This document shows, piece after piece, positions 16,139-48,526 of a stretch of DNA of 64,000 nucleotides. Every line of letters starts with the position of its first letter. Position 1 is the first letter of the stretch. The notes beneath the pieces were generated by a model. That model made no database searches. It was not told the origin of the DNA and was given only the letters and a program-made list of their open reading frames with translations. A program made the translations under genes and the position numbers. The stretch is taken from contig JAUXSB010000055.1 in the NCBI GenBank assembly GCA_030681595.1, forward strand, positions 364 through 64,363, written 5' to 3'. The DNA is from Candidatus Omnitrophota bacterium (GTDB lineage: Bacteria; Omnitrophota; Gorgyraeia; Ghiorseimicrobiales; Ghiorseimicrobiaceae).

Positions 16139-16213
16139 TTATGGAAGCGCAATTTTTGTTAGCAAATTTATTTTGAATAGACGGCCATCTAAGGACGGCT
16201 ATCTCTAACGGGG
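16093..16213. mobile_element. MITE-like element, copy 3 (121 bp). TIRs 'ccccgttagagat' and 'atctctaacgggg'. Subterminal hairpin 'tagacggccatctaaggacggct'.
   Basis: Overlaps the 3' end of hemA (stop at 16138 is inside the element). Ends 11 nt before the hemC ATG. Confidence 0.6.
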
Positions 16214-16224
16214 CGAGAAGCATC

Positions 16225-21416: not shown

Positions 21417-21456
21417 TTCCCACCTCCGAGGTGGGAAACGGTTAGAGTATAAATAT

Positions 21457-22500: not shown

Positions 22501-22523
22501 CGCGGAACAATGCGGAAAAGTAT

Positions 22524-22985: not shown

Positions 22986-22986
22986 A

Positions 22987-23448: not shown

Positions 23449-23484
23449 TAAAATACCAGGTAGCGGGTAGAGAGAAATATCACG

Positions 23485-32924: not shown

Positions 32925-33902
32925 ATGCATAACAAAACCAGAAACCAGAAACCAGAAGCCAGAAGCCAGAAAATTATTTCTTTTTACCGGTTTGTATGTT
33001 TGATTATATTTTTGTCTTCTTCCCATGTTTCTTTTGTAATTGCGCAGGAGAAGGAGTTCAAAAAGGGATGCCGCGCCTGCCATAGCGAACAAATAGATAA
33101 ATGGGATGCGTCAGAGGTCAGGCATTTTCCTTACGCTCGGGAAAAATGTGAGTCTTGCCATGCGGCGGAGCATAAAAAATTTACCCCGTTAGAGAAAAAC
33201 AGCGATAAGGTTAACAGTGAAAACATGGTTAGTAATGGTGAATTAACTCAGGCATCAGCAGGTACTGTTGGAGAAAGTTCTCTAACGGGGTTTACCGCAG
33301 AACAGGAGAAGCCTTGCTTAATCTGCCATGATTTAAATTCGGAAAAAATCAAAAAAGCGCATTTTTCCGGCGATTTAACCGGCGTAAATTGTTTTAACTG
33401 TCATTATACGCATGCCGCGGATAAAAAAGGCCTGCTTAAGGAATCTGTACATGAGCCGTTTGTTTCAGGTATGTGCGATGCCTGCCATAATATCAGCGCT
33501 GAAGGTAAAATAGAAGTGAAGGGACAAACCAAGAAAATCTGCCTTGCCTGTCATTCCAGTTTACTAACAAAGGACGATACAGTAAAACATTCCGGTTATG
33601 ATATGCTGGAATGTGTTGATTGTCACAATCCCCACACTAGTAGTGAAAAATGGCTTTTAAAGAAGAAAATAACACAAATTTGCTTTGATTGTCATGGTAA
33701 AGAGGAGGCGGCAAAGCACCCGTATGATGTAGTGCCTTCACAAAAAATAAATCTTGACAAAGGCAATGAAATATGGTTAACTAATGATAGGCAAATGAGT
33801 TGCGTAAGCTGCCATAATCCTCATTCAGCAAAAATTCCCTTTCTGCTGAGAGAGTCCCTCGAGGATGGGAAGCTCTGTAATATTTGTCATCCAAAACAAT
33901 AA
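32925..33902 (+). CDS. Decaheme c-type cytochrome with an N-terminal signal anchor. Contains a heptamer-repeat-encoded N-terminal stretch and an internal MITE-TIR-bounded insertion.
   Basis: 10 CxxCH (CRACH, CESCH, CLICH, CFNCH, CDACH, CLACH, CVDCH, CFDCH, CVSCH, CNICH). 'TRNQKPEARSQK' is encoded by (aaccaga)n. Confidence 0.8.
   Translation: MHNKTRNQKPEARSQKIISFYRFVCLIIFLSSSHVSFVIAQEKEFKKGCRACHSEQIDKWDASEVRHFPYAREKCESCHAAEHKKFTPLEKNSDKVNSENMVSNGELTQASAGTVGESSLTGFTAEQEKPCLICHDLNSEKIKKAHFSGDLTGVNCFNCHYTHAADKKGLLKESVHEPFVSGMCDACHNISAEGKIEVKGQTKKICLACHSSLLTKDDTVKHSGYDMLECVDCHNPHTSSEKWLLKKKITQICFDCHGKEEAAKHPYDVVPSQKINLDKGNEIWLTNDRQMSCVSCHNPHSAKIPFLLRESLEDGKLCNICHPKQ
33184..33292. mobile_element. 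MITE-related insertion, copy 5 (~109 bp) inside the decaheme cytochrome ORF. Bounded by 'ccccgttagaga' and 'tctctaacgggg', with an internal sequence unlike copies 1-4.
   Basis: Both 12-nt termini match the TIRs of the family in inverted orientation at the expected spacing. Encodes the in-frame linker 'FTPLEKNSDKVNSENMVSNGELTQASAGTVGESSLTGF' between heme motifs. Confidence 0.45.
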
Positions 33903-33915
33903 AAGGAGTAAAAGC

Positions 33916-34893
33916 ATGAAAAGGAAAAATCTTTTTATAAGTTTATTAGTGAAATTATTCACGGTGATATTTTTCACTATAATTTTTTGCGGTTATTCGG
34001 GCTTAAGATTTTGTTTTGGGGAAGCAGCCAGCCGATATAAATTTCTTTATGATTTAAGTTCTAATACTTCCGGAATAGGTTCTCTTAATCAGCCAGCGGG
34101 TATAGCTGTTGATATTGCGGGGAATATTTACGTGGCAGATACCGTGAACAGCCGAGTGGTGGTCTTTGATGAGTTGGGAAAAATAAAACTCAGTTTTGGA
34201 AAATTAGGAGATAAAGCAGGGGAATTAAATGCTCCAATGGCGCTAATTGTCGATTCAAAGGGAGAGAAAGTATATGTAGCGGATTCATCCAATAACCGGG
34301 TACAGGTGTTTAAAATTAATGGCGAATTTATTTCAACGATAGATTTAAGCAAGGCTCTTAGCGATAAAGACAGGCTAGTACGGCCGATTGGGATCGCTAT
34401 TTCAAGCCAAGGCAATATTTACATTTCAGATGCGGATAATAATTATATCCGAGTTTATGATAGCGCAGGGAATTTTTTGTTTAAATTCGGGGGTTTCGGT
34501 GCCGAAGAAGGCAAACTCTGCCTGCCGGTGGGGTTATCTATTGATAAAAAAGATAATGTTTATGTGGTGGATATGAATAACGCAAGGCTGCAGATTTTTG
34601 ATAAAGAAGGAAAATTTTTATCGAAAATTGGCTCTCCCGGGGATACAAAAGGCAGCTTCGGTAAACCGAAGAGTGTTTATGTGGATAATAAAGGGGTGAT
34701 TTATGTTTCCGATGGAGCGAATCTAGTTATCCAAGCATTTGATAAACAGGGAAACTTTATAGATTTAATTGGGGCGGAGAAAGAAAAAGAACTACAGTTT
34801 GCTTCTCCGTTTGGATTGAGCGGGTATAATAACCGCCTTTATATAACTGATAGATGGAGAAATAGCGTAAGAGTTTATGAGGTTAAAAATTAA
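33916..34893 (+). CDS. NHL-repeat six-bladed beta-propeller protein with an N-terminal signal/TM. Start moved to the ATG at 33916, behind the RBS 'aaaggag'.
   Basis: Six repeats of the type 'P.GIAVD..GNIYVADT.NSRVVVFD..GKF' (NHL). The upstream part of the track ORF overlaps the cytochrome gene by 38 nt. Confidence 0.75.
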   Translation: MKRKNLFISLLVKLFTVIFFTIIFCGYSGLRFCFGEAASRYKFLYDLSSNTSGIGSLNQPAGIAVDIAGNIYVADTVNSRVVVFDELGKIKLSFGKLGDKAGELNAPMALIVDSKGEKVYVADSSNNRVQVFKINGEFISTIDLSKALSDKDRLVRPIGIAISSQGNIYISDADNNYIRVYDSAGNFLFKFGGFGAEEGKLCLPVGLSIDKKDNVYVVDMNNARLQIFDKEGKFLSKIGSPGDTKGSFGKPKSVYVDNKGVIYVSDGANLVIQAFDKQGNFIDLIGAEKEKELQFASPFGLSGYNNRLYITDRWRNSVRVYEVKN

Positions 34894-34914: not shown

Positions 34915-36000
34915 ATGAAAAAGAATTTGGTTTTACTGTTAGTATTAGGATTATTGGTGGGTGTATATAGTTTTTCTTTTGCCAGCGTGGTAAATACTAA
35001 ACACGATATGTTTTTTATGAGCAAAGGAATTGACCCTAATGTGTGCGGTTATTGTCACGTTCCGCACAATGCGGCTGGTGATAAAATCTGGTCAACATGG
35101 GCAAATGAAGCGCAGCTAACTAGTGGGCCTTCAAGTACCATCGGTAATATGTGTTATACCTGTCACGATGGAACGGCAACGTCTTTAGGCCAGACTACCG
35201 CGTTTAATGCGGCTTTACAGCAGCATAAAACAGATACTGGGACAGATTGTAATATTTGCCATACAGTACATGATAATGCCAATGGGAAGTTTCTTGGTAT
35301 CGCTAAGACTCAGAGCGCAAATACAGAGTCGGCTACATACTGCGAAACCTGTCATGACGCGACAATGTATCCGGGGGCTGATCCGCACGGTGACCATTTA
35401 GCGGGAACCGAGCATCCGTATAAGGATACAGGCGCGGTATTAGATGAAAGCTGTAATGCCTGCCATCAGATGCATGGCGCGGTAAATTATACTACTACTT
35501 CTTTGACTAACCCGATACTTAAGGTAGCTAATGCCGATTCAGCCTATTGTGCGACGTGCCATGTTGGATATGTGCAGGCGGCTATCGGCGGTAATAAACA
35601 TCCGGCTAACTTGTCATCCGGTGGTTCTTGGGGTAAGGTTGACTGTGCAACTTGCCATGATCCGCATCAGCCGGCTGATTCTGGAAGGCCGTCTATACTT
35701 AAGGATGCCAATACTGATTCCGCATATTGCGCAACTTGCCATCAGGCAACGGGAACAGTTAAAGGACCCACAGTAGGAACATTTAGCCATCCTACAAGCG
35801 TTGGCTTTACAACAGTCGGTTTAACACCCGCGGGTAATAACATTGACGACGATAATGACGGCGCAGATTATCCGGGTAATTCCGCGTCTTTAGTCTGCGA
35901 AAGCTGCCATTCGGTACATAAGAAAGGTGTGAGTGGTAAACTTCTGCGTATTACGGCAACAGCTGGCGCGTTATGCGTTAACTGTCATAGCGGTAAATAA
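34915..36000 (+). CDS. Secreted multiheme c-type cytochrome (~9-10 CxxCH), paralog A of a tandem triplet.
   Basis: Signal peptide. Conserved N-terminal block 'KHDMFFMSKGIDPNVCGYCHVPHNAAGDKIWSTWANEAQL'. CxxCH spaced with distal His ('CHDPHQ', 'CHSVHK'). S/T/G/N-rich linkers. Confidence 0.8.
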   Translation: MKKNLVLLLVLGLLVGVYSFSFASVVNTKHDMFFMSKGIDPNVCGYCHVPHNAAGDKIWSTWANEAQLTSGPSSTIGNMCYTCHDGTATSLGQTTAFNAALQQHKTDTGTDCNICHTVHDNANGKFLGIAKTQSANTESATYCETCHDATMYPGADPHGDHLAGTEHPYKDTGAVLDESCNACHQMHGAVNYTTTSLTNPILKVANADSAYCATCHVGYVQAAIGGNKHPANLSSGGSWGKVDCATCHDPHQPADSGRPSILKDANTDSAYCATCHQATGTVKGPTVGTFSHPTSVGFTTVGLTPAGNNIDDDNDGADYPGNSASLVCESCHSVHKKGVSGKLLRITATAGALCVNCHSGK

Positions 36001-36036
36001 GCTTAGAGTAAGAGCGGAGAGCTTAGAGTAAAAAGT

Positions 36037-36078
36037 AGAGGGTAGCCTGTTAACTTACCGGCTACTCTCTACTTCTAA
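36037..36078 (+). terminator. Hairpin 'aagtagagggtagcc-tgttaacttacc-ggctactctctactt' (14-bp stem, one mismatch), followed by 'tctaaag'.
   Basis: Inverted repeat read directly between the cytochrome paralogs. Preceded by the direct repeat 'agcttagagtaa' x2. Confidence 0.4.
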
Positions 36079-36080
36079 AG

Positions 36081-37238
36081 ATGACTTATTTAAAATTTTT
36101 TATATCTATAGTTTTTATATTTTTTGCTTGGGCGAATAGTTTTGCCGGCGTCGCCGGCTCAAAGCACGATATGTTTTTTTTAGGCAAAGGCACAGACCCC
36201 AACGTCTGCGGCTACTGCCACATCCCGCATAACGCCGCAGGCGTAAAAATCTGGTCTAAGTGGGGTAATGAGGCGCGGCTTTCCGGCTCTTATACAGAAA
36301 TAGGCAATATGTGTTATACCTGCCATGACGGGACCGCTACCAATATCGGACAGTCAACAGCTTTTAATACCAGCCTGCAACAACATAAAATAACTTCCGG
36401 GCAAGATTGTAATATGTGCCATTCGGTACACGATAATATTAACGGTATGTTTATGAATGTACCAGTAACACAAAATTTTTATTGCGTCAGCTGTCATAAT
36501 GCAACGCAAAACGCAGGCGGGTTAGGCGATTATACCTATGCTGCTACATCTAAGGGGCATCACCCAAGTTATTTTAGCTCAACCACGAGAAGATTCCGCC
36601 ATAGTACAGGTTCTCCGCCTACGGGCGCCTCATGTTCTGCTTGTCATCATGAACGTACACAGAGGGCTTCCAGCTATAATAGTTGCGGGCTTTGTCACGA
36701 AGTCCACGCGGGAGTGAATTATTCCACTGCCAGTGTATCTAATCCTATATTAAGGATTGATAATACTGATAGCGTCTTTTGCGCCAGTTGTCATCCGATA
36801 ATCGTGCAAAGTACAAGCAGCGGCAATAAGCACCCGGCGAATTTAAGTTCCGGCGGCAGCTGGGGCAAGGTTGATTGCATGGCTTGCCATGATTCTCATC
36901 AGTCAAATCAGGATACGGTTTTTATCTTGCGCGATAAAAACGTTGATTCGGCATATTGTCTTACTTGCCATGATACAACAAGCACCGCCAACGGCCCAAA
37001 AATCGGAAACGGCCATCCGGTAAATGTAGCGTTTGAGACGACACCGGTAGATCCTTCGAAAGCTCCGGCAGGAAATGCTATTAATGACGATGGTTTTTAC
37101 GGTGTAGATTACCCGGCAAATTCGGCTAATGTAATTTGTGAAACTTGTCATTCCATACATAGAAAAGGTGTGGCTAGTCCATTATTACGCATAGATAATA
37201 GCGGGAGCGCCCTTTGCCTTAATTGCCACCAGATGTAA
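36081..37238 (+). CDS. Secreted multiheme c-type cytochrome, paralog B of the tandem triplet.
   Basis: 'SKHDMFFLGKGTDPNVCGYCHIPHNAAGVKIWSKWGNEARL' N-terminal block shared with 34915 and 37245. About 10 CxxCH. Confidence 0.8.
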   Translation: MTYLKFFISIVFIFFAWANSFAGVAGSKHDMFFLGKGTDPNVCGYCHIPHNAAGVKIWSKWGNEARLSGSYTEIGNMCYTCHDGTATNIGQSTAFNTSLQQHKITSGQDCNMCHSVHDNINGMFMNVPVTQNFYCVSCHNATQNAGGLGDYTYAATSKGHHPSYFSSTTRRFRHSTGSPPTGASCSACHHERTQRASSYNSCGLCHEVHAGVNYSTASVSNPILRIDNTDSVFCASCHPIIVQSTSSGNKHPANLSSGGSWGKVDCMACHDSHQSNQDTVFILRDKNVDSAYCLTCHDTTSTANGPKIGNGHPVNVAFETTPVDPSKAPAGNAINDDGFYGVDYPANSANVICETCHSIHRKGVASPLLRIDNSGSALCLNCHQM

Positions 37239-37244
37239 TAATAA

Positions 37245-38417
37245 ATGAAAAATAAAAAATTAAAAAGTAAAAACAAAAAACTTGTACTGTCTGGATTTTT
37301 TTTCTTTTTTACCACCTTCTTTTTATTTTATGGCGTTTTTGCCTTTGCCGGAGTCGCGGGTTCAAAACACGACATGTATTTTTTAGCTAAAGGCACAGAT
37401 CTCAATGTCTGTAGTTATTGCCATATCCCGCATAATGCGGCAGGTGAAAAGATCTGGTCTACTTGGGCGAATGAAGCGCGGCTTTCAGGCTCATATACAG
37501 AAATAGGCAATATGTGTTATACCTGTCATGATGGGACTGCCACAAATCTCGGACAGACATCAGCGTTTAATGCGTCTCTGCAACAGCACAAAATGTCTTC
37601 GAGCCAGGACTGTGATATGTGCCATAGCGTGCACGATAATACCAATGGAAAGTTTATGAATGTTGTAAAATTAGATTCATATTGTTCCTCTTGCCATAAT
37701 GCGGTTACTAATGCCGGGGGATTGGGCGATCATGTCAACGGGGTAAATCACCCGGATTGCGGCGCCTGCCATGGCGCGACAGAACTCGATCTTTTAGGTT
37801 CCGATGGAGATAATGCAAGTTGTCATCTTTGTCATGCCAAGGCACACGGGGCGGCTAATTATTCAACACCTAGCGTTGCAAATCCCATTTTAAAATGGGG
37901 TAATCCTGACAGCCAAATGTGTGGCGTCTGCCATGCGGATAAAGTTCAGGCAAGCAGTGGGGGCGCTAAGCACCCTGCTAACATGAGCAGCTCCGGCTCT
38001 TATGGAAAATTAATTTGCCAAACATGCCATGATGTGCATCAGCCGGGAGTAACGAACCATCTGTATTTATTGAGTGAGCCGAATATCGATTCTCAGATGT
38101 GTATCAATTGCCATAATGGCACAAGCGGCCCGGACATTGGCCACTCGCATCCTTACCAAATAGGTTTTGGGGCTATTATTCCTGTAGATGCATCGGCAAC
38201 TACTGGCACGCCAGCAGGCAATGTGATTAACGATAATGATTATGTTACTGATCATATATGGCCGGATGAATATCCGGATTATCCGACAAACTCCGCGAAT
38301 TTAATCTGCGAAACCTGCCATGGTATTCATAATAAATCAGATAATCCGGGTACCAAATTATTACGGATAACTAACACTAATTCCGCGTTGTGTTTAAATT
38401 GTCATACGGATAAATAA
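37245..38417 (+). CDS. Secreted multiheme c-type cytochrome, paralog C of the tandem triplet.
   Basis: 'SKHDMYFLAKGTDLNVCSYCHIPHNAAGEKIWSTWANEARL'. About 10 CxxCH. Insertion 'NDNDYVTDHIWPDEYPDYPTNSA' at the position where the paralogs carry 'DDDNDGADYPGNSA' and 'NDDGFYGVDYPANSA'. Confidence 0.8.
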   Translation: MKNKKLKSKNKKLVLSGFFFFFTTFFLFYGVFAFAGVAGSKHDMYFLAKGTDLNVCSYCHIPHNAAGEKIWSTWANEARLSGSYTEIGNMCYTCHDGTATNLGQTSAFNASLQQHKMSSSQDCDMCHSVHDNTNGKFMNVVKLDSYCSSCHNAVTNAGGLGDHVNGVNHPDCGACHGATELDLLGSDGDNASCHLCHAKAHGAANYSTPSVANPILKWGNPDSQMCGVCHADKVQASSGGAKHPANMSSSGSYGKLICQTCHDVHQPGVTNHLYLLSEPNIDSQMCINCHNGTSGPDIGHSHPYQIGFGAIIPVDASATTGTPAGNVINDNDYVTDHIWPDEYPDYPTNSANLICETCHGIHNKSDNPGTKLLRITNTNSALCLNCHTDK

Positions 38418-38481: not shown

Positions 38482-39927
38482 ATGAAAAATAATAAAACAC
38501 CAGTTTTTCTTTTAGCTACTTTAGGGATTTTTCTGTTTATTGTGCCTATTTATGCCGAGCATTATGAAGGCCGGGATTGCAGCGAGTGCCATCAGGAGCA
38601 TAATAATGACGAATATAAAATTTTAACCGATACAGCAGTCAATGGCGGTGACGTTCCTTGTTTTAGCTGTCATTCGCAAGAGAGGCCGAGTAGTCCCGCG
38701 CCCGATACAAAGAAGGAATTTGATATGGCTAGTTCCCGCCATCCCTTAGGAAGCGACAAGGAATGCCTTATCTGCCATGAATTAAACAATAAGCATAATG
38801 ATGGGCATATAGATTCTTGGCCGGATGTGGGGTTGCGTGATCCCGACTCGCAAGATTCTCACGTTTATAGCGGCGATAAAATCAATAATTTTTGTTTGAG
38901 TTGTCATGATAATTCGCCGGTTAGCCTTGGGGATCCGCCGCGGACGCCTATTGATTTATCTAGCGCGTATGAATTTAGCGGACACGGCCGCATAGATATA
39001 AACGAGCCATGCACAAGCTGCCATAAACCCCATGCCTCCATAAATAAGCCTTATATGATTCAAGACGTGATTAATGAAACTGTGATTACAGGAAATGACA
39101 ATAGCGTCTGTTTTGCCTGCCATAGTTATTCAGAAGGTATTTATCCCGGGAAGAACACTTATTTAACCAGCGAGCACGGGATAGAGAATAAACTCTGTAT
39201 TGATTGCCATAATCCCCATGGGGACAATAAGGACCTTTGTTATCTCTGCCATAACGACAAATATTCCGCGCATTATAGCGCAAAGCGCGATAAGCTTTGC
39301 ATTGACTGCCATAATCCCCATGAAAAAGGCGGACTAAAAATGACCAAAGAAGATGAGGAAAAATTGTGTTTTGCCTGCCATAAAGAATTGGAGAGGGAGT
39401 TCGGAAACTTGCGCGACGGCGTATCGGGAAGCTTTTCGCACCATAAAGTTGACGATGAAGAATACGGAGGAGGAAAAGTAGAATGTTTCGACTGCCATAA
39501 TCCGCATATAGTGAATAAAATGAATATCGTAAGCGATCCGGATTCATCGAGTATGAATATGCCGCCAAGGGCGTTCCCGAAAGACAGCTATAGTTATAAA
39601 ACAGATATTTACGATGAATTTTGCCTTGCCTGCCATGACGGCTCGCGCATTTCGGCAAAAAATATAAAATCAGAATTAGACAGTGTTTCGAATTTAGAAA
39701 CCGAATTTACGCAAGGCCAGGCTAACAACCTGCATAAAACCCATAAAGAAAGAGGCTATGGCTGTCAGAATTGCCATAACGCGCATTCAAGCAATGGGAC
39801 AAGCGGCATTAGAAAGGGCGCCTTATTAGATGAGCGGCTCGCTATTACTCATTGGAACCAAACGGATAAATACTCAGATGGAAAGAATTCCTGCAGCGGT
39901 TCCGGGTTAGCGTTAGGATGCCATTAA
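38482..39927 (+). CDS. Multiheme c-type cytochrome (~13 CxxCH) with a signal peptide; candidate periplasmic or outer component of a porin-cytochrome conduit.
   Basis: Signal 'PVFLLATLGIFLFIVPIYA'. 13 CxxCH including repeated 'C(I/F)DCHNPH' units. 481 aa. Confidence 0.8.
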   Translation: MKNNKTPVFLLATLGIFLFIVPIYAEHYEGRDCSECHQEHNNDEYKILTDTAVNGGDVPCFSCHSQERPSSPAPDTKKEFDMASSRHPLGSDKECLICHELNNKHNDGHIDSWPDVGLRDPDSQDSHVYSGDKINNFCLSCHDNSPVSLGDPPRTPIDLSSAYEFSGHGRIDINEPCTSCHKPHASINKPYMIQDVINETVITGNDNSVCFACHSYSEGIYPGKNTYLTSEHGIENKLCIDCHNPHGDNKDLCYLCHNDKYSAHYSAKRDKLCIDCHNPHEKGGLKMTKEDEEKLCFACHKELEREFGNLRDGVSGSFSHHKVDDEEYGGGKVECFDCHNPHIVNKMNIVSDPDSSSMNMPPRAFPKDSYSYKTDIYDEFCLACHDGSRISAKNIKSELDSVSNLETEFTQGQANNLHKTHKERGYGCQNCHNAHSSNGTSGIRKGALLDERLAITHWNQTDKYSDGKNSCSGSGLALGCH

Positions 39928-39936
39928 AAAGTTAAA

Positions 39937-41736
39937 ATGCAAAATGTAAAACGCAAAATGAATATAGTAAGAAAGCCATTTTTATTTATCATTATATTTT
40001 TTTGCGCTTCTTTATTAGTTTTTAAAAGTTCTTATGCTAATCCTACCGAGAGGTTGAATATAGACGCGGAAGTTGAATATAAGGTAAGCGATTTTGAGCG
40101 CGATCCTGAGCCGGCGCTGTCTTCAACGGGCAGCAATTTAGCTCAGGATTATCGTTTTTATTTAGAAGGCAGTATATTAAAAGAAGGCCTGCTTGATTCA
40201 TTATTTGGTGTTTCATTAGGCGACAAGTATAGAAAAGACGACACGGATTTTGAAAATAAATTGCGTTTTGATTATGGCCGCTGGCTGACTATCGATACCT
40301 TGAGCCATCACGAAACAGACGAAGAAATATTCTTTTCCGGAACCACTGAGCCGCAATCGCCCATTCACACTATTATTAAAAAATATGAGACTCGGCTTGC
40401 GTTAGATCCCGCTACATCTCTTTACTATAGCTTTGAAGATAATGAGCGCAAAGATGTCCTTTTGGGCACAACCACAGGAGAGAAAACAAGGTCTGAAACT
40501 GTAAGGCTTAAGCGGGAAAATGGCCCTTTGAATTTTAACAGCGAATACAGGGAAGTTAATTTTGACGACCTTTTGGGCACAAGGAGTGATGTCAGGAGCC
40601 GTGATTTAAACCTGGATATGTCTTACCGTCCGATGGATTCTTTTAGTATTTCGGGATTTTTAGAAAATAAAAAAGATATAGATATTATTAATAATACGGC
40701 CTTGGATTCAGATGAGTACCGTTTGGAGTTTGCCTTAAAGCCGCTTAAAGAGCTAAAACTGCGTAACCGTTTAAAATTAAGCCAGGATAACGACACTAAG
40801 ACAGGCGAAGATTTATCAAATAAGTCTGATGAAATCATTATTAATCTGGACCCAGTTAAGCAGTTGGGTGTTGAGTTCGCTTATAAAAGAGAGGATGAAG
40901 ATAAGGAAAGGGTATCTTCGGAAATAGATTCTGCAATTAATGAAGAGAGGCTTAGGCTTAGAATTACGCCTTTTTCTTGCGTAAATATCCAGTCTGGATA
41001 CGAGGTTTCGGATAAAACAAGCACTTCTTCTACTGAAAATATAAAGAATACCAAGCTTTATTCGGATATTTCCCTAACCCCTATAAATAACTTACGGTTA
41101 GGGGTTAATTTTTCCAATGCCAAGCAAAAAAATACCTTTACTTCTACGGTAGAATCTGATACAAATTTAATATCGGCCTCTACGCAGTATAGAGTAAACG
41201 AGAAAGCGTCTTTATTTGTGCAGATAGATACTTCCAAGACAGATAATCCTTCAACCGGCGCGTTCACTAAGACGGATACTTTAAGTTCGCGTATCAGCGT
41301 TGACCCTTTTTCTTTTTTGAATATGTCTTTGCGGAATAGCGCTCAGGAGACTAGCGGAACATCTACTTCGGCATTATCCGAGAGGCTATTGAATGCGTTG
41401 GAACTGGATATAAAACTTCTGGATAACCTCAAAGTTTCCACAGAGTATGAATTAGTTATGTCCAGCGGCACTACTTCTTCCGATGAGAACCTGTTTGATA
41501 TCGCGACATTTTATAATATAGGCAAGTTTGATTTCTCTTTGCGTTTTCAGGACAGAGGTGTTACCGGAGACAATCCAACGGATAAAACCGCGGTGTTAAG
41601 CAATATTAAATACCGGCTTTCGCCTAATGCCGTATTCAGCTTTAGGTTTTCTCTTATTAACTACACAGATAAATTAACCGCGGCCAACAGCTACGATTCA
41701 ACCACAATCGAGAGTTTGTTATCGATGAGGTTTTAA
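39937..41736 (+). CDS. Outer-membrane beta-barrel protein (porin-like; candidate cytochrome-sheathing porin of an MtrB/OmbB-like conduit).
   Basis: Signal peptide 'KPFLFIIIFFCASLLVFKSSYA'. 599 aa rich in S/T/N/D/Y with alternating hydrophobic beta-strand dyads throughout. C-terminal '...LLSMRF' ending in Phe (OMP signature). Directly between two multiheme cytochrome genes with 9-nt and 2-nt spacers. Confidence 0.65.
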   Translation: MQNVKRKMNIVRKPFLFIIIFFCASLLVFKSSYANPTERLNIDAEVEYKVSDFERDPEPALSSTGSNLAQDYRFYLEGSILKEGLLDSLFGVSLGDKYRKDDTDFENKLRFDYGRWLTIDTLSHHETDEEIFFSGTTEPQSPIHTIIKKYETRLALDPATSLYYSFEDNERKDVLLGTTTGEKTRSETVRLKRENGPLNFNSEYREVNFDDLLGTRSDVRSRDLNLDMSYRPMDSFSISGFLENKKDIDIINNTALDSDEYRLEFALKPLKELKLRNRLKLSQDNDTKTGEDLSNKSDEIIINLDPVKQLGVEFAYKREDEDKERVSSEIDSAINEERLRLRITPFSCVNIQSGYEVSDKTSTSSTENIKNTKLYSDISLTPINNLRLGVNFSNAKQKNTFTSTVESDTNLISASTQYRVNEKASLFVQIDTSKTDNPSTGAFTKTDTLSSRISVDPFSFLNMSLRNSAQETSGTSTSALSERLLNALELDIKLLDNLKVSTEYELVMSSGTTSSDENLFDIATFYNIGKFDFSLRFQDRGVTGDNPTDKTAVLSNIKYRLSPNAVFSFRFSLINYTDKLTAANSYDSTTIESLLSMRF

Positions 41737-41738
41737 TA

Positions 41739-42656
41739 ATGTGGTATCAAGTATCCCCGCCTGTGGCGGGACAGGCAGGTATCAAGTATCAAGTAATAAT
41801 TGCTGTTGCGGTTTCGCTATTGTACTTTTGTTTTCTGCCGGCTTATGGCTCGTCTGAGTGCAGCCAGTGCCATCAAATAGAGGCAGAAAGTTTTGCTTTG
41901 ACTAAACACGCGATAGATAAAAACTGCGATATTTGCCACGGGAGCAGCGAGAAACACTTAACTGCAGAGGTTAAAAAGGATAATATTATTAATCCCAACG
42001 GGTTAAATCTTAAAAAGGGGAATGGTATATGCCTTAGCTGTCATACGGAAAAAGCGAAAGACGTAAGTGAGAGGTTTGTTGCTGTAGCGAGCCTGCATGA
42101 TGATTTACGTTGTTATGAATGCCATACGGTACATTTAAAAAGCTCTGACGAAGAGGCCGATGTAGATTTATTTAAAGACGACCTATATGTTGATTGTTCC
42201 CTTTGTCATAGTAATCAGGCGGAAAATTTTTCTGATTCCGGGCATGGTTTGTCAGGAATAAAATGTTTAGACTGCCATAAGCCGCATGAAGCAAAAACAA
42301 TAAGTCAGGATATAGAAGGAGAAATTGATAAATGCTTGTCTTGCCATCCGGCTCAGGAGTTGGAATTTAAATCTTTTTACGCGCATCCGCTTCGCCAGAG
42401 GCAGATTAGGTGCAGTGATTGCCATAACCCACATAGTAACAATTATGATAAAATGCTCAAAAAAGACGCGGATGATTTATGCGGGGATTGCCACGCCGGT
42501 ATTATGATTGAAGGGGGTAAGCATCCGCTAAGCAAGAATACGAACCATCCGTTTAAAACGGTGGAATGCCTGGATTGTCACCGGCCTCACGGTTCAAATT
42601 TTGATAAGCTGTTAAAACACAATATAGACAATATCTGCAAAACATGCCATAATTAA
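41739..42656 (+). CDS. Multiheme c-type cytochrome (11 CxxCH) with a signal peptide; second cytochrome partner of the beta-barrel.
   Basis: CSQCH, CDICH, CLSCH, CYECH, CSLCH, CLDCH, CLSCH, CSDCH, CGDCH, CLDCH, CKTCH. N-terminal hydrophobic 'VIIAVAVSLLYFCFLPAYG'. Confidence 0.8.
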   Translation: MWYQVSPPVAGQAGIKYQVIIAVAVSLLYFCFLPAYGSSECSQCHQIEAESFALTKHAIDKNCDICHGSSEKHLTAEVKKDNIINPNGLNLKKGNGICLSCHTEKAKDVSERFVAVASLHDDLRCYECHTVHLKSSDEEADVDLFKDDLYVDCSLCHSNQAENFSDSGHGLSGIKCLDCHKPHEAKTISQDIEGEIDKCLSCHPAQELEFKSFYAHPLRQRQIRCSDCHNPHSNNYDKMLKKDADDLCGDCHAGIMIEGGKHPLSKNTNHPFKTVECLDCHRPHGSNFDKLLKHNIDNICKTCHN

Positions 42657-42875: not shown

Positions 42876-43769
42876 ATGTGTAATAGCAATACGAAGAAAT
42901 TATTTTCATTTTTCACTTTTAATTTTTCACTTTTAATTTTTTTAGCCGGTTGCGCATCCGGCCCGTCCAGCTATTTTAGGTTAAAGCCGGTATCTAAGGA
43001 TACACATGTAAAAACGGCTATTATTCCTTTTACTAATCTTACATCTGAAAAAGACGCGGAGAAAAAAATCGCCTACGCATTAATAACACACCTTCTAAAT
43101 ACGACTTATTTTGATATTGTTGAAACAGGAGAGGTACAGAAAGCGATGCGCGATGGTAAGGTGCGCAAAGACGAGGACTTATCTTTAGAGAATATAAAAA
43201 GTATCGGCCAGCTTACCGGCGCAGACGTCCTTTTAATGGGCGTGGTTGAAGAATACAAGATTGATTCCAGTACTCTGTTAGGCGAAAAAGTATTCGTTCC
43301 GGAAGCCTCTGTCAGCCTGCGGCTTGTCAGCGTCAAAGACGGCTCAATCGTCTGGTCGGTAAACCACCACCGCAGAGGCGATGACCGCGTGACTATCTTT
43401 GGTATGGGCAGGGTAGATTCCATAAGTACTCTTACGGATATAATCATAAAGAATAGCGTTGATTCTTTAATGCGGGTGATGAGAAAAAGGCGTAATGCCT
43501 TAGCGATGTTAAAGAACAACCCGCCTGCCGAAGAAGCCGTTGGTAAGGATGCTGTTATAAAAAAAACAGATAAACAGGGCAGAAAAGATGCGGGCCGGCA
43601 AAAGGCGATAGAGGATGCCATAAAAGGATCCGGGAGCAAAAAAGAAATAAAAAAAGAAAAGGCTGTTTCTTTGCCGCCTGTTAAAGATGTTACTAAGCCT
43701 AAAGACGCACGCCAGGAAATAAAAGACCAGTATAACCAGGAATACGAAAAAATCAAAAAACAATACTAA
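42876..43769 (+). CDS. Outer-membrane lipoprotein of the CsgG/FlgO-like family (curli-secretion-channel-like fold), with a K/E-rich low-complexity C-terminus.
   Basis: Lipobox 'LIFLAGC'. 'TAIIPFTNLT...KIAYALITHLLNTTYFDIVETGEVQKAM...IGQLTGADVLLMGVVEEY' matches the CsgG-family N-terminal consensus (AVxPFxN...L...FxVVER...GAD.ll.G.V). Confidence 0.45.
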   Translation: MCNSNTKKLFSFFTFNFSLLIFLAGCASGPSSYFRLKPVSKDTHVKTAIIPFTNLTSEKDAEKKIAYALITHLLNTTYFDIVETGEVQKAMRDGKVRKDEDLSLENIKSIGQLTGADVLLMGVVEEYKIDSSTLLGEKVFVPEASVSLRLVSVKDGSIVWSVNHHRRGDDRVTIFGMGRVDSISTLTDIIIKNSVDSLMRVMRKRRNALAMLKNNPPAEEAVGKDAVIKKTDKQGRKDAGRQKAIEDAIKGSGSKKEIKKEKAVSLPPVKDVTKPKDARQEIKDQYNQEYEKIKKQY

Positions 43770-43789: not shown

Positions 43790-44224
43790 ATGGCAAGATT
43801 CAGAATGTTGGGGGCGGCCATATTTATTTTTTTATTTTTTCTGTTTGCCATCAGTTATTGTATTTCTCAAGTAGCCAATGATGGTGATTACTGCTTATCC
43901 TGCCACAATAAGGACGTAAATTTAAGCAAGAAATTCCTGCATCCATTAGTTAAGGAAAAGAAATGCCGGGCTTGTCATATATCTTATGATAACAGCCGTC
44001 ATAAAGAAGGCGATGAACCTGTATTTAGTGCGTGTATAAGTTGCCATAGTGAAGAAAAATTAGGGCGTTCGCATCCGGTAGGAGATGGCGTCATTGATCC
44101 TAATACCAAAGATACGATGACTTGCGTATCCAGCTGCCACATACCGCATGGATCAGACTATAAGTATCAGCTGGCATTTAAGAACAATATGGAGTTATGT
44201 CTTAGTTGTCATAAGGATTTTTGA
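43790..44224 (+). CDS. Small c-type cytochrome (4-5 heme motifs) with a signal peptide.
   Basis: 'AAIFIFLFFLFAISYC' signal. CLSCH, CRACH, CISCH, CVSSCH (C-x3-CH), CLSCH. Confidence 0.7.
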   Translation: MARFRMLGAAIFIFLFFLFAISYCISQVANDGDYCLSCHNKDVNLSKKFLHPLVKEKKCRACHISYDNSRHKEGDEPVFSACISCHSEEKLGRSHPVGDGVIDPNTKDTMTCVSSCHIPHGSDYKYQLAFKNNMELCLSCHKDF

Positions 44225-44388: not shown

Positions 44389-44967
44389 ATGGAAGGCAAG
44401 AATTTCAAGCGAAAAAAATATTTTTTAAAAAATTCCTCGCAGCCGGTTTTAATTTTAAAAGTTTATCTTTTGCTTATTGTAGTGATGTTTTTGTCTGGCG
44501 CGGTATTTTATTTTATCGGAAACAAAAATTTAACTCATGAGTTATTCCAGGCGCACTCGGTAATAAAAACTACAATGCAGCTTTTATTTCCGGCTTTACT
44601 TTTGGTAAATATTATCGGCCTTTTGGGCGCAGCCTCTTTAGTAATATTTTTTACGCATTCTATCGCCGGGCCGATTCACCGCCTTAAGACTTTATCGGAA
44701 AAGATTGCCAGCGGAGATTTAACACTAGAAGTAAAATTCCGCAAGAGAGATGAAATTCAGGAATTAGCCGCGGTGATAAACAATATTATTAAAGGGTTGA
44801 ATTTCCGATTAAGAAATTTTGAAAATTCTTTATATAAGCTGCGCGGATTATCCGTAAAAATAAACGATATCGATAAACTTTCGCATGGGGAACTTAACAA
44901 CCTTAAAAATTCTCTTATGGCGGTAAGCGAAGAACTGGAAGAAAAGATAAAAAAGTTTAATTTATAG
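44389..44967 (+). CDS. Membrane protein with a HAMP-like linker domain (signal-transduction-type); function unknown.
   Basis: Two TM segments flanking a periplasmic loop. 'IAGPIHRLKTLSEKIASGDLTLEVKFRKRDEIQELAAVINNIIKGL' resembles a HAMP domain. Confidence 0.45.
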   Translation: MEGKNFKRKKYFLKNSSQPVLILKVYLLLIVVMFLSGAVFYFIGNKNLTHELFQAHSVIKTTMQLLFPALLLVNIIGLLGAASLVIFFTHSIAGPIHRLKTLSEKIASGDLTLEVKFRKRDEIQELAAVINNIIKGLNFRLRNFENSLYKLRGLSVKINDIDKLSHGELNNLKNSLMAVSEELEEKIKKFNL

Positions 44968-45945: not shown

Positions 45946-47766
45946 ATGGATTTTTTTAGAAATTATAATTTTAAAAGCGCGATTAATAGGCCCTGGGTAA
46001 TCAGCGTTGTATTAATCGCGTTGATAGCGATAGTCGGATTTTATATTTACGCTAATTGTTTAGACGGAAAATTTATCTGGGATGATGTCTGGTATGTAAA
46101 AAATAATTTCCATATAAAGCACTGGTCGCATATCCGTAAGATTTTTACAAGTGATATATACCTCAGGACAGATTTTGGCACGGGTAACGCATTCTACCGG
46201 CCGCTTCAGATGTTTAGCTATATGATTGATTATTCTGTCTGGAAGCTTAATGTAAAAGGATACCATCTTAGCAATATTGCCTTACATATCCTCACCGCGT
46301 TAAGCATATACTGGTTAATTAATATCCTCTGGCGCGATCAATACCTTTCATTGTTTACCGCCTTATTATTTATCACCCATCCCATACATACTGAAGCGGT
46401 TGACTATATAGCTGGACGGGCGGATTCTTTAGCCGCTTTGTTTGTAATCATTTCTTTCGTATTATATATAAAGCAGATTGATGGCAGGCGTATGGGTATA
46501 AGCTTCTTGATGCTGGCAAGCTATATTTTAGCGCTTCTTTCTAAGGAATACAGCTTGATCTTATTGGGGGTATTGCTGCTCTATAGTTATACTTTTAAAC
46601 GCAGCTTAAAGAACAGGGGTTTTTATCTGATTTTAATCGCCAGCTTTAGCTATATCTTATTGAGGCTGACTATCCTAAAGAAATTACTGATTGTGCAGTT
46701 AAGCTTCGATAATGGCTTTTTAGAAAGAATCCCGGGATTCTTTGTCGCGATAACCAATTATATAAGGCTTCTAGTGTTTCCGTTTAATCTGCATATGGAA
46801 TACGGCATTGATTTATTTGATATTAGGGACCCCAAGGCGATAGCAGGTGCTTTATCGGCTATTCTTTTGCTTTTTTTTGCGTTTAAAAAACGAAAGACAG
46901 ATAAATTAGCCTTTTTTTCTGTTTCCTGGTTTTTTATAACATTGCTGCCGGTTTCAAATCTTTATCCTATCAATGCTTATATGGCCGAACACTGGTTATA
47001 TTTGCCTTCCTTAGGATTTTTTTTAATCGTCGCGAGATTCCTATGGTCGCTATTTAGGACGGCGCGTTTTAGAAGCATTGCGTTGTTTTGCGTGCTAGCC
47101 CTGGCGTCGTTTTACTCGTATTTGACTATAAAACAAAACGAATATTGGAGGGATCCGATAGTTTTTTTTCAGAGGACGCTCGAGTATTCTCCTTATAGTG
47201 CGCGATTATACCTTAATCTCGCCAATGCTTATAGCGATTCCGGCAGATATGACGAAGCCATTGGTTCATACAAGAAAGCAATAGAACTACTCCCGGATTG
47301 CGCTGATGCATACACCAATTTTGGCGTAGTCTATAGCAGGCTGGGTAGGCACGAGGAGGCGATTGCCTTATACAAGAAGGCGATAGAAATAGCTCCGGAT
47401 AACGCGCAGGCATACACAAACCTCGGTAATGCTTATATGGATATTGGAAGGCATAATGAGGCGATTGTCTTATACAGGAAGGCGATAGAAATAAATAAGG
47501 GCCATGCGGAAGCATATTATAATTTAGGAGTGGCATATGATAGGCTCGAGAATCCTAAAGAGGCGATCATTGCTTACAGAAAGGCGATCGAGATTAACCC
47601 GGCGCATACGGATGCTTATTATAATCTTGGGATTTTGTATGTTGGCTTAGGCGATAAGTTAAAAGCAATAGAATTTTTCAAAAAATCCATAGAAGCCGAT
47701 CCTGATAATATTGATGCCGCCTATAACCTTGAGGTTATGCGTATTTCACAGGGCAGTAAAAATTAG
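45946..47766 (+). CDS. Polytopic membrane protein (GT-C / protein-O-mannosyltransferase-like N-terminal domain) fused to C-terminal TPR repeats.
   Basis: About 11 TM helices in the N-terminal 400 aa. Then 7 or more canonical 34-aa TPR units ('AYTNLGNAYMDIGRHNEAIVLYRKAIEI...'). Confidence 0.65.
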   Translation: MDFFRNYNFKSAINRPWVISVVLIALIAIVGFYIYANCLDGKFIWDDVWYVKNNFHIKHWSHIRKIFTSDIYLRTDFGTGNAFYRPLQMFSYMIDYSVWKLNVKGYHLSNIALHILTALSIYWLINILWRDQYLSLFTALLFITHPIHTEAVDYIAGRADSLAALFVIISFVLYIKQIDGRRMGISFLMLASYILALLSKEYSLILLGVLLLYSYTFKRSLKNRGFYLILIASFSYILLRLTILKKLLIVQLSFDNGFLERIPGFFVAITNYIRLLVFPFNLHMEYGIDLFDIRDPKAIAGALSAILLLFFAFKKRKTDKLAFFSVSWFFITLLPVSNLYPINAYMAEHWLYLPSLGFFLIVARFLWSLFRTARFRSIALFCVLALASFYSYLTIKQNEYWRDPIVFFQRTLEYSPYSARLYLNLANAYSDSGRYDEAIGSYKKAIELLPDCADAYTNFGVVYSRLGRHEEAIALYKKAIEIAPDNAQAYTNLGNAYMDIGRHNEAIVLYRKAIEINKGHAEAYYNLGVAYDRLENPKEAIIAYRKAIEINPAHTDAYYNLGILYVGLGDKLKAIEFFKKSIEADPDNIDAAYNLEVMRISQGSKN

Positions 47767-47812: not shown

Positions 47813-48526
47813 ATGTCGAACGATGCGATTATTTTAATAGGAGCCGCGTTGAGCATCGGTTTTTTTCATACTGTATTTGGGCCGGACCATTACTTGCCTT
47901 TTGTTGCGATGTCTAAGGCGCGAAAGTGGAATATGGCTAAAACCGGAGTAGTCACATTATTATGCGGCTTGGGGCATGTGTTAAGTTCCGTTGTGCTTGG
48001 GTTTATAGGCATAGCTTTGGGTGTTGCCGTTTTTAAATTAGAGTCTATTGAGTCTTTTCGCGGCGATATCGCCGCCTGGTTTATGCTTATTTTTGGTTTT
48101 ACCTATTTTGTCTGGGGCTTGCGCATGGCAATCCGTAACAAGCCCCACAACCATTCTCATGAACACGCCAGGCATGGGTTGCATGAACATCCGCATAAGC
48201 ATAGCGATGAACACCTGCATATTCACGCGGCCAATGAAAAAGCCAATATAACTCCGTGGGTTCTTTTTACCATTTTTGTATTCGGGCCATGCGAGCCGCT
48301 CATCCCTATTTTAATGTACCCGGCAGCCAAGGGTAATATAACATCGGTAGCGATAGTGGCAGCGGTTTTTGGCATCGCTACTATTTCTACGATGCTGGCA
48401 TTAGTATTTATTTTTTCTTACGGTTTATCTAAGATTCCGCTTGCAAGATTAGAAAGGTATTCGCATGCCCTTGCCGGCCTGATAATTTTTTTCTGCGGGG
48501 GGGCAATTAAGTTTTTGGGGTTATAG
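47813..48526 (+). CDS. RcnA/HupE-UreJ-like nickel/cobalt transporter with a His-rich cytoplasmic loop.
   Basis: 'FGPDHYLP' and 'FGPCEPLIP' TM motifs. Loop 'NHSHEHARHGLHEHPHKHSDEHLHIHAANE'. Confidence 0.6.
   Translation: MSNDAIILIGAALSIGFFHTVFGPDHYLPFVAMSKARKWNMAKTGVVTLLCGLGHVLSSVVLGFIGIALGVAVFKLESIESFRGDIAAWFMLIFGFTYFVWGLRMAIRNKPHNHSHEHARHGLHEHPHKHSDEHLHIHAANEKANITPWVLFTIFVFGPCEPLIPILMYPAAKGNITSVAIVAAVFGIATISTMLALVFIFSYGLSKIPLARLERYSHALAGLIIFFCGGAIKFLGL

Follow-up and report, generated by a model that had tools for sequence, protein, structure and literature searches.

A conserved omcE-type cytochrome cluster built around a candidate MtrAB-like conduit in subsurface Candidatus Omnitrophota

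Three consecutive genes in the window analysed here, a 64-kb stretch of DNA from Candidatus Omnitrophota, encode a 13-haem cytochrome, a haem-free protein of 599 residues and an 11-haem cytochrome. With moderate confidence, we interpret this triplet as an MtrAB-like conduit that forms the outer-membrane core of a conserved omcE-type extracellular electron transfer cluster in a subsurface lineage. Direct support comes from the modelled fold of the 599-aa protein, from homology to MtrA and to OmcE, and from strict synteny over eight contigs.

The three open reading frames are intact and lie on the forward strand at 38482-39927 (cytA, 481 aa), 39937-41736 (the barrel, 599 aa) and 41739-42656 (cytC, 305 aa, with a tentative start codon). 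They contain 13, 0 and 11 CxxCH motifs, respectively, against an estimated chance expectation of far below one per protein. Spacers of 9 nt (TAA AAAGTTAAA ATG) and 2 nt (TAA TA ATG) separate the genes, and both the tight packing and the gene content described in an earlier, sequence-only reading of this DNA proved accurate. Across eight loci (the window, L001, L004, L006 and L010-L013), the barrel stop codon lies between -1 and 27 nt from the start of cytC, and the distance is at most 4 nt in five of them. Because orthologues matching in length and order occur on at least seven other contigs, we regard the three reading frames as real genes. The triplet is kept together in every related genome found, the opposite of what the sequence-only reading would have taken as evidence against a conduit; all of these genomes are Omnitrophota MAGs, with source waters from the iron-rich subsurface (e.g., DeMMO and Crystal Geyser). 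The whole module around the triplet is syntenic across loci at 50-74% barrel identity, and the flanking genes are unrelated.

Structure prediction suggests that the 599-aa protein, which carries a signal peptide and a C-terminal Phe β-signal, is a very large outer-membrane β-barrel. The model contains 22 confident strands and about 28-30 in all, a total that is approximate because the N-terminal third is modelled at pLDDT <50. The confident strands alone exceed the roughly 20 anticipated for a conduit by the sequence-only reading, which had taken fewer than 16 as evidence against one. The serine/threonine/asparagine-rich, amphipathic character attributed to the protein is also evident: S, T, N and Q make up 29% of residues, hydrophobicity alternates on most modelled strands, and the C-terminus (...SLLSMRF) ends in a Phe that is invariant among 15 homologues. 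The best global structural match to the model is MtrB. Sequence similarity to MtrB and to Pfam MtrB_PioB is absent, which counts against an MtrAB-like reading, and none was detected to barrels from the clusters used for comparison, those of Geobacter included, or to OscG or any other barrel. A search of 1.84 billion representative proteins returned four matches, all from the barrel's own family, and no relatives were found outside Omnitrophota. At the level of sequence, the barrel is a true orphan.

The earlier claim that these proteins show no obvious similarity to known families thus stands for the barrel, but it does not stand for cytC, whose sequence marks it as a clear MtrA/DmsE relative. 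cytC matches chain A of PDB 6r2q (MtrA) with E 2.8e-21, its haems 3-11 falling in register with MtrA haems 1-9 (nine motifs aligned). It also matches TIGR03508 (DmsE family) with 138.6 bits and E 2.5e-40, a score that lies below the 192.2 cut-off and so counts against the assignment, and its nearest non-orthologous matches are proteins named as DmsE-family decahaems. The haem number, 11 rather than 10 (and 9 in the L006 orthologue), likewise counts against an MtrAB-like reading; relative to MtrA, cytC has two extra N-terminal haems and lacks a counterpart of haem 10.

The other cytochrome of the triplet, cytA, matches Paired_CXXCH_1 with 106 bits and ends in a conserved CX8CH motif that may provide a 14th haem site. 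Its orthologues (54-78% identity) are confined to the same clade, beyond which identity falls to 30% or less. A full-length match with 25% identity (E 3e-22) links cytA to a 13-haem cytochrome of Geobacter sp. AOG2, the gene for which adjoins an OmcE homologue. The AF2 model of cytA is poor (pLDDT 58). In the translations of both cytA and cytC we read a hydrophobic, signal-peptide-like N-terminal segment and no canonical lipobox, in agreement with the sequence-only reading.

The triplet is not free-standing but sits in a larger conserved module, ordered as ResB/CcsA, a decahaem cytochrome, an NHL propeller, one to four OmcE-like cytochromes in tandem, the 13-haem cytochrome, the barrel, the MtrA-like cytochrome, a CsgG/LpoB-like lipoprotein and a small cytochrome. 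In the window, where all genes given below with coordinates are on the forward strand, three OmcE-like paralogues precede cytA, at 34915-36000 (10 haems), 36081-37238 (11 haems) and 37245-38417 (11 haems), and are 50-55% identical to each other. Searched as a single sequence, the OmcE-like protein matches the OmcE filament subunit 7tfs_A with E 6.2e-8, and a family profile built without signal peptides matches 9yuq_N (2.7e-9) and 7tfs_A (6.8e-8), the next match being at 9e-4. Both solved OmcE-type filaments are therefore matched specifically, and over the aligned stretches the four CxxCH motifs of OmcE and four further His residues all have invariant counterparts. Judged by these alignments, the tandem cytochromes are related to, but larger than, OmcE, the nanowire protein of Geobacter.

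Directly upstream of the paralogues lie a secreted NHL-repeat β-propeller (33865-34893; NHL 115 bits), present in all orthologous clusters, and a decahaem cytochrome (32925-33902; 10 CxxCH) that is a weaker MtrA/DmsE relative (6r2q_A, E 2.4e-11), conserved in L001, L004 and L010-L013 and reduced to 4 haems in L006. The propeller is 35% identical (E 5e-27) to an NHL lipoprotein of Geobacter sp. AOG2 that also adjoins the OmcE homologue. Directly 3' of cytC, every orthologous cluster encodes the LpoB/CsgG-like lipoprotein (42876-43769; lipobox LAGC; Pfam LpoB 35.2 bits and CsgG 31 bits, both above cut-off), relatives of which occur in distant cytochrome/NHL/barrel clusters. It is followed by a small cytochrome of 144 aa (43790-44224; four CxxCH and one CX3CH), kept in all orthologous clusters and carrying five CxxCH in L004. 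The module ends with a 192-aa HAMP-domain membrane protein (44389-44967; HAMP E 8.1e-10) that has orthologues in L001, L004, L006 and L010-L013.

The window also holds genes that could supply such a system. System II cytochrome c maturation is encoded by ResB/CcsB (28260-29327) and CcsA (29324-30103), which adjoin the module in L001, L006, L010 and L013 too. Next to them, a 19-haem cytochrome fused to a cytochrome b membrane domain (30093-32864; Ni_hydr_CYTB) is a candidate CbcL-like quinol:cytochrome oxidoreductase; it is absent from L001 and is 32% identical (E 2e-96) to a second CbcL-like multihaem and cytochrome b fusion at 25675-27516. A NapC/NirT-like cytochrome (24801-25640), a c554-like cytochrome (27589-28125), a haem biosynthesis pathway and a type II secretion-like gene set complete the inventory.

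Among known systems, the MtrAB(C), MtoAB and PioAB conduits of Shewanella, Sideroxydans and Rhodopseudomonas (PDB 6R2Q) resemble the triplet in that the gene for a periplasmic MtrA/DmsE-type cytochrome adjoins that for a very large outer-membrane barrel. MtrB has 26 strands, compared with the 28-30 or so predicted here. The gene order here, with a cytochrome, the barrel and then the MtrA-like cytochrome, differs from that of MtrABC; an MtrC/OmcA-type lipoprotein decahaem is absent; and the propeller, the OmcE-like cytochromes and the CsgG/LpoB-like lipoprotein are extra conserved partners. None of the module cytochromes is a lipoprotein, unlike MtrC or OmcB, which counts against a conduit in that a surface cytochrome would need some other means of retention. 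The Geobacter Pcc/Ext systems (OmaB-OmbB-OmcB, ExtABCD, ExtEFG and ExtHIJKL) follow the same logic of a porin with periplasmic multihaem and surface cytochromes, and a periplasmic cytochrome of about 12-13 haems takes part, as do ExtA and ExtG; their surface cytochromes are lipoproteins and their porins have about 20-21 strands. No NCBIfam Ext/Oma model matched at E <0.1 except for a trivial ExtN match to the small cytochrome. The sequence-only reading was right that the triplet departs from Mtr and Pcc in its haem counts and in having no lipoprotein cytochrome, and the very large modelled barrel and the conserved triplet support the porin-cytochrome gene logic it had recognised.

Its suggestion of an undescribed conduit type is not upheld in the sense of a stand-alone system, as the triplet is the outer-membrane core of a cluster matching the published omcE-type nanowire architecture. 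The minimal omcE cluster comprises nearby resB/ccsB, two multihaem cytochromes, β-propeller proteins, OmcE and a large β-barrel (Petersen et al., bioRxiv 10.1101/2025.10.22.684050), the same parts list as the module. Of the components known from the clusters of Desulfuromonadia (OmcE filament PDB 7TFS), the OmcE-like, 13-haem and NHL proteins have recognisable homologues here, and downstream of the module are candidate glycosyltransferase and TPR genes, an arrangement shared with freshwater Geobacter. Whereas OmcE has 4 haems in about 230 aa, the proteins here have 10-11 haems in 361-390 aa, with 6-7 haems added as a block that separates OmcE haem 2 from the third distal His, and each cluster carries from one to four tandem paralogues. 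Next to the barrel, the omcE clusters encode a pentahaem lipoprotein, whereas here the neighbour is the MtrA-like 11-haem cytochrome; the propeller lacks a lipobox, the barrel is unrelated in sequence, and the five phyla for which OmcE homologues have been reported do not include Omnitrophota. By description only, the module also resembles the Uet (undecahaem electron transfer) cluster of Tenderiales, with its undecahaem cytochrome, NHL-repeat proteins, predicted 28-strand barrel, small tetrahaem cytochrome and adjacent CcsAB, but it lacks the c7-type trihaem cytochromes, cupredoxin and peptidyl-prolyl isomerase of Uet (bioRxiv 10.1101/2022.05.06.490989). Synteny and structure prediction have also pointed to lineage-specific clusters of sequence-divergent porins with periplasmic and extracellular cytochromes in uncultured Verrucomicrobiota and Acidobacteriota, and so within the PVC superphylum too (He et al., 2017, PMC5615132; bioRxiv 10.64898/2026.05.27.727921). 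Their architectures differ from that seen here, some having a periplasmic cytochrome with 8 haems, and tandem OmcE-like genes are not described for them.

The omcE literature raises a different role for the barrel. There, the large barrel is proposed as a secretion pore or anchor rather than a conduit sheath, which counts against a conduit here. On this model, which partly overlaps with ours, the barrel would mainly secrete or anchor the OmcE-like cytochromes, like the OscEFG channel-like system or the large barrel of omcE/omcS clusters, and the 13- and 11-haem proteins would be periplasmic chargers rather than a sheathed wire. The shared architecture, the CsgG/LpoB-like lipoprotein and propeller conserved beside the barrel, and a strand number beyond what MtrB needs would all fit, and OscEFG of the osc assembly system (osc for OmcS companion) are described as secretion components in PMC13194489, which refers to Shen et al. 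(2025). Yet the gene translationally coupled to the barrel encodes an MtrA homologue and not an OmcE-like protein, the best global fold match is MtrB, a separate type II secretion-like set is present in the window (and adjoins the cluster in L004), and we found no sequence link to OscG; we consider this model unlikely. A role for the 599-aa protein in general diffusion or substrate transport, by chance among periplasmic respiratory cytochromes and with no trans-outer-membrane conduit, seems highly improbable, given that general porins have 14-18 strands against the 22 confidently modelled here and about 30 in all, that plug and TonB-box receptor domains are absent, and that the family is seen solely inside this module, always between the same two cytochromes.

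A further alternative leaves the structure unchanged and concerns direction alone. Instead of reducing acceptors outside the cell, the system would draw in electrons supplied by Fe(II), by minerals, by a partner cell or by a cathode-like surface, on the pattern of MtoAB, PioAB or Uet, for which uptake is the proposed role (bioRxiv 10.1101/2022.05.06.490989). Conduits of the MtrA type can run in either direction, and MtoA cannot be separated from MtrA as a family (PMC10734462), the CbcL/MtoC/MtrH group is found in reducers and oxidisers alike (PMC6295460), and the iron-rich source waters and the parallels with Uet would suit uptake. Set against this, no cluster-linked cupredoxin, Cyc2 or terminal oxidase is present within the window, and OmcE-type cytochromes have so far been characterised solely in metal and electrode reducers. 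On balance, inward transfer appears rather unlikely.

In the MtrAB-like conduit that we favour, the 599-aa protein would span the outer membrane as a barrel of about 28-30 strands, and we infer that the 11-haem cytochrome enters it from the periplasm to form an insulated trans-membrane haem wire, as MtrA does in MtrB. The 13(+1)-haem cytA would be a second cytochrome partner, acting at the cell surface or as a bridge within the periplasm. Electrons from the quinone pool would be delivered via the CbcL-like and NapC-like cytochromes encoded upstream, and would exit to, or arrive from, the three OmcE-like cytochromes at the cell surface, which may polymerise. Roles in assembly or anchoring are proposed for the NHL propeller and the CsgG/LpoB-like lipoprotein. 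The tie to omcE systems is suggested both by the filament matches and by the homology of cytA and the propeller to neighbours of a Geobacter OmcE homologue. Since a very large barrel and two multihaem cytochromes, one of them an MtrA relative, occur in a conserved cluster with relatives of OmcE, electron transfer across the outer membrane of this organism is probable.

The candidate conduit is encoded by three genes on the forward strand: cytA (38482-39927), for a 481 aa protein with 13 CxxCH motifs; a barrel gene (39937-41736), for a 599 aa protein with 0 CxxCH motifs; and cytC (41739-42656), for a 305 aa protein with 11. The three ORFs, the haem counts of 13, 0 and 11, and the spacers of 9 nt and 2 nt are as described in the sequence-only reading, which had proposed an undescribed type of porin-cytochrome conduit here. 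Their translations also bear out its view of the two cytochromes, since cytA and cytC begin with hydrophobic, signal-peptide-like N-termini without a canonical lipobox. In a protein database search, the barrel protein and cytC had 100% identical entries in a 'Candidatus Omnitrophota bacterium' MAG. For cytA there was no 100% identical database entry and the best match was 78%; the public annotation of that MAG may lack the gene or have it under a different gene call.

The barrel family is small and confined to few genomes. A word-indexed search of 5.8 billion proteins returned 15 clusters, none of them below 49% identity. An exhaustive profile search with HMMER covered 1.84 billion representative proteins and returned one full-length cluster and three fragments, with nothing beyond the barrel's own family at E <=0.001. 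Among 185,579 species genomes scanned, four carried the barrel, all of them Omnitrophota MAGs (Crystal Geyser CG11, DeMMO3_17, Dive96_bin10.280 and DRR093005_bin.42). Conservation of the triplet in related genomes, on which the earlier proposal had been staked, was found in every contig examined: the three genes were intact and lay inside the same module of cytochrome genes, in strict synteny. This module opens with ResB and CcsA (missing from some contigs), a decahaem cytochrome and an NHL beta-propeller. There follow one to four tandem cytochromes of 10-11 haems, the 13-haem cytochrome, the barrel and a 9-11-haem cytochrome, and the module closes with a lipoprotein, a small 4-5-haem cytochrome and a HAMP membrane protein. 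The flanks vary, with type II secretion/pilin genes and recA beside the module in contig L004 and heterodisulfide-reductase-like genes in contig L006. Because the flanking genes differ between contigs, the association of the module genes is selected rather than inherited by chance. The barrel stop and the cytC start overlap by 1 nt or are separated by 1-27 nt in 8/8 contigs (<=4 nt in five of them). A scan of 28-46 kb for promoters and terminators did no better than on shuffled sequence (45 promoter-like sites versus 48.5 when shuffled, and 14 terminator-like sites versus 18.5) and is uninformative on operon structure.

The 599 aa protein had been read as an outer-membrane beta-barrel from its composition, its amphipathic periodicity and its C-terminal Phe. 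All of these features hold: S/T/N/Q residues make up 29% of the protein, most modelled barrel strands coincide with alternating hydrophobicity, and the sequence ends in ...SLLSMRF, with the Phe invariant in 15 homologues. We modelled the protein with AlphaFold2 from a 15-sequence alignment (mean pLDDT 68.9). Residues 200-599 were predicted confidently (block means mostly 80-95) as 22 long antiparallel strands, and residues 21-193, at low confidence, were also modelled as eight or nine strands, which brings the all-beta model to an approximate total of 28-30. The predicted fold is thus a barrel, and its confident strands exceed the 16 that the sequence-only reading had set as a minimum. By sequence, the protein stands alone. 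Its single match in Pfam was a sub-threshold one to Porin_4, with none to the MtrB_PioB family, and its profile matched neither MtrB nor any other solved chain among PDB sequences (6r2q_B included). Likewise, hhalign found no link between the barrel profile (A1) and the haem-free proteins with a C-terminal Phe from L008 and L009, two contigs with non-orthologous comparison clusters, and phmmer/hmmsearch with filters off found no sequence link among the four barrels compared. Since a model of ~28-30 strands goes together with the lack of a sequence match to MtrB or to any solved chain, we describe the protein as a predicted very large barrel with an MtrB-like fold that is an orphan in sequence.

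The sequence-only reading had seen no obvious similarity to known families in this triplet, and for cytC this is incorrect. Against TIGR03508, the DmsE/MtrA family, the scores are 138.6 bits for cytC (E 2.5e-40) and 85.3 bits for cytA; both are significant homologues, below the curated family cut-off of 192.2 bits. The best solved relative of cytC is 6R2Q chain A (E 2.8e-21); we take this entry to be the Shewanella baltica MtrCAB complex, with chain A as MtrA and the depositor's molecule name in error. Haems 3-11 of cytC align in register with haems 1-9 of MtrA, as nine consecutive CxxCH motifs, which shows cytC to be a homologue of MtrA. Relative to MtrA, cytC has two extra N-terminal haems and no counterpart of haem 10, and its orthologues carry 9-11 haems. 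Its nearest relatives outside its own clade are 420-aa, 16-haem cytochromes and many proteins named 'DmsE family decaheme'.

For cytA, orthologues were found in the same clade only, at 54-78% identity, with other relatives at <=30%. No solved structure was matched by sequence, and the AlphaFold2 model was too poor to use (pLDDT 58). Over its full length, cytA is collinear with a Geobacter sp. AOG2 cytochrome that has 13 haems and 465 aa (25% identity, E 3e-22). The C-terminus of cytA (39880-39927) holds a CX8CH motif (SC..8..CH) that every clade member keeps. At this position the wider family, to which the Geobacter protein adjoining OmcE belongs, has CX3CH (GGSCxxGCH), so the CX8CH motif may be a non-canonical site for a 14th haem.

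Upstream of cytA, three tandem genes (34915-38417) encode paralogous cytochromes that are 50-55% identical to one another. One of them matches the OmcE filament subunit 7TFS (E 6.2e-8), and a profile of ten members of the family, with signal peptides removed, placed the two solved filaments of the OmcE type at the top, 9yuq_N (2.7e-9) and 7tfs_A (6.8e-8), the next match being at 9e-4. Rather than being tetrahaem proteins of ~220-270 aa, these OmcE-like proteins have 10, 11 and 11 CxxCH motifs in 361-390 aa. Their invariant H6, C20xxCH24, H27, C56xxCH60, H268, C304xxCH308, H311 and C330xxCH334 align with OmcE motifs, and all four CxxCH motifs and four other conserved histidines of OmcE are retained in the aligned segments. 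The proteins keep the N- and C-terminal halves of OmcE, and an insertion after OmcE haem 2, ahead of the 'HP' histidine, adds a block of 6-7 haems. Each orthologous cluster holds one to four copies.

The neighbours of these genes recall omcE clusters as well. The minimal omcE cluster comprises two multihaem cytochromes, two beta-propeller lipoproteins, OmcE and a large beta-barrel, with resB/ccsB nearby, and OmcE homologues have been reported in five phyla, Omnitrophota not among them (Petersen et al., bioRxiv 10.1101/2025.10.22.684050). The module shares this parts list: a barrel, a propeller, two multihaem cytochromes, OmcE-type proteins and resB/ccsB. In Geobacter sp. AOG2, the 13-haem cytochrome comes first, followed in order by a 269-aa tetrahaem protein, an NHL lipoprotein and a pentahaem lipoprotein; then come a haem-free protein of 673 aa with a terminal Phe and, finally, another NHL protein. 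Of these, the tetrahaem protein is an OmcE homologue (9yuq_N 1e-12, 7tfs_A 2.2e-11), and the NHL lipoprotein is 35% identical (E 5e-27) to the NHL protein of the window, whose propeller has no lipobox. These matches show that the OmcE-like paralogues, cytA and the NHL protein are all homologous to omcE-cluster components, and on this sequence evidence we assign the wider cluster to the omcE type. Just downstream of the module, genes at 45946-47766 (+), 48531-50213 (-) and 50418-51125 (+) encode two paralogues, each a multi-pass membrane protein that carries TPR repeats at its C-terminus (one has a sub-threshold PMT/GT39 match, E 2.4e-4), and a family-2 glycosyltransferase; they recall the GT2/GT39/TPR glycosylation genes that adjoin omcE clusters of freshwater Geobacter.

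Other genes in the window could supply the remainder of such a system. Two paralogous fusions of multihaem cytochrome c and a cytochrome b561/FdnI-like membrane domain, one at 25675-27516 and one at 30093-32864 (the latter with 19 haems and absent from contig L001), are candidate CbcL-like quinol oxidoreductases. Three CbcL/MtoC/MtrH and three ImcH homologues have already been listed in Omnitrophica (Zhong and Shi, PMC6295460). The window also encodes a NapC/NirT-like cytochrome, a c554-like cytochrome and ResB/CcsA. Directly upstream of the cytochromes lies a complete siroheme-dependent (Ahb-type) haem biosynthesis set (13858-24771), comprising a CysG-N-like gene, hemA, hemC, a cobA-hemD fusion, two radical-SAM AhbC/D-like genes, hemB, two NirDL/AhbAB-like genes and hemL. 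Two DsbD_2/CcdA-like thiol-reductant exporters in the flanks (9787-10404 and 47813-48526) are consistent with a heavy demand for cytochrome c maturation. A gene of this kind follows the module in L001 and L006 too. A type II secretion/type IV pilus-like set (1119-8610; secretin, T2SS-F, pseudopilins and an MshEN/T2SS-E ATPase) may serve to export surface cytochromes; in L004 (1-3053), a 50%-identity relative, a partial set of T2SS-E, T2SS-F and pseudopilins lies immediately upstream of the module. The small cytochrome of the module (43790-44224) has four CxxCH motifs and one CX3CH (Cys112). Its L004 orthologue has five canonical CxxCH motifs, so this CX3CH probably functions as a fifth site for haem.

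The sequence-only reading had proposed an undescribed conduit type, which is right as to the combination of parts and goes too far as to kind. Divergent, lineage-specific porin-cytochrome clusters were already known in Verrucomicrobia (PMC5615132), and others include those of peat Acidobacteriota/Verrucomicrobiota (bioRxiv 10.64898/2026.05.27.727921), Uet (bioRxiv 10.1101/2022.05.06.490989) and PCC3 (PMC10734462). Since such clusters are a recognised theme, the module is not a categorically new kind of system. Its combination nevertheless differs from every described one: an orphan barrel of ~28-30 predicted strands, an 11-haem MtrA relative and a 13(+1)-haem partner, together with a CsgG/LpoB-like lipoprotein, tandem 10-11-haem OmcE derivatives and no lipoprotein cytochrome. 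The module holds no lipoprotein decahaem of the MtrC/OmcA type; none of its cytochromes has a lipobox, and matches to the MtrC/MtrF domain were weak or secondary at most. It is also set apart from Uet of Tenderiales by the described gene set of the latter (uetA-J, which codes for c7 trihaem cytochromes, a cupredoxin and a PPIase among others), as neither the module nor the window was found to encode a c7-trihaem-only protein, a cupredoxin or a rotamase. The most novel part is the enlarged OmcE-like genes, which lie just outside the triplet first flagged. In the literature searched, no paper was found on OmcE-type cytochromes from Omnitrophota or on a conduit for electrons across the outer membrane of this phylum; of the surveys that include the phylum, one gives CbcL/ImcH homologues only, and FeGenie-type ones make generic mentions.

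A further cluster type is suggested by L007 (1-10207) and L008 (3177-15256), which hold the 16-haem proteins that are the nearest non-orthologous relatives of cytC; their sources are a Desulfurivibrionaceae MAG and a metagenome contig. Alongside a SurA-like prolyl isomerase and a 26-haem cytochrome, these clusters encode NHL proteins, GNA1162/LpoB-like lipoproteins and a haem-free protein of 750 aa whose last residue is Phe, and they look like another undescribed cytochrome/propeller/barrel type. The Pfam-less 653- and 659-aa proteins that adjoin the cytC relatives, at first taken for barrels, are 26-haem cytochromes.

The best-supported reading of the triplet is an MtrAB-like conduit that forms the outer-membrane core of an omcE-type cluster for extracellular electron transfer (EET). 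The MtrA-like cytC would be inserted in the large barrel, the 13-haem cytA would be a second partner, and the enlarged OmcE-like proteins would lie at the cell surface. The main rival is that the barrel is chiefly a pore through which the OmcE-like proteins are secreted or by which they are anchored, as has been suggested for omcE/omcS clusters; the barrel of the omcE cluster is described as 'putatively functioning as a secretion or anchor' (bioRxiv 10.1101/2025.10.22.684050). The MtrA homology of cytC and its position beside the barrel fit a conduit, and the two roles are compatible rather than exclusive. That the barrel is an ordinary porin is very unlikely; we rejected a general porin or TonB receptor on strand count, the lack of a plug and exclusive co-occurrence with cytochromes. 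As to the direction in which electrons would flow, the sequence cannot decide whether the system would take them up, as in MtoAB or Uet, or would reduce Fe(III), Mn(IV), humics or a partner cell.

A bolder extension of the conduit reading, which we think rather unlikely, is that the OmcE-derived tandem proteins polymerise into a nanowire with deca- or undecahaem repeat units, mounted on and charged via the MtrA-like cytochrome in the orphan barrel. If so, an Mtr-type conduit and an OmcE-type filament would be fused into one machine, the interface halves of OmcE would be kept around an inserted block of 6-7 haems, and the filament would come from a phylum in which EET is not known.

Groundwater and sediments hold Omnitrophota in abundance, but the phylum is uncultured. 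A conserved and self-contained module that links the quinone pool with the cell surface would mark some of its members as candidate respirers of iron, humics or partner cells in the subsurface. As a sequence family, the barrel is new to tools that look for EET genes, FeGenie and MHCscan for example. By joining an MtrA-type trans-membrane wire with OmcE-type extracellular cytochromes, which are usually treated apart, the cluster bears on how cytochrome filaments may be anchored and charged at the outer membrane, and the enlarged OmcE-like proteins, as naturally occurring variants, would make it possible to test whether additional blocks of haems are compatible with the interface through which OmcE polymerises.
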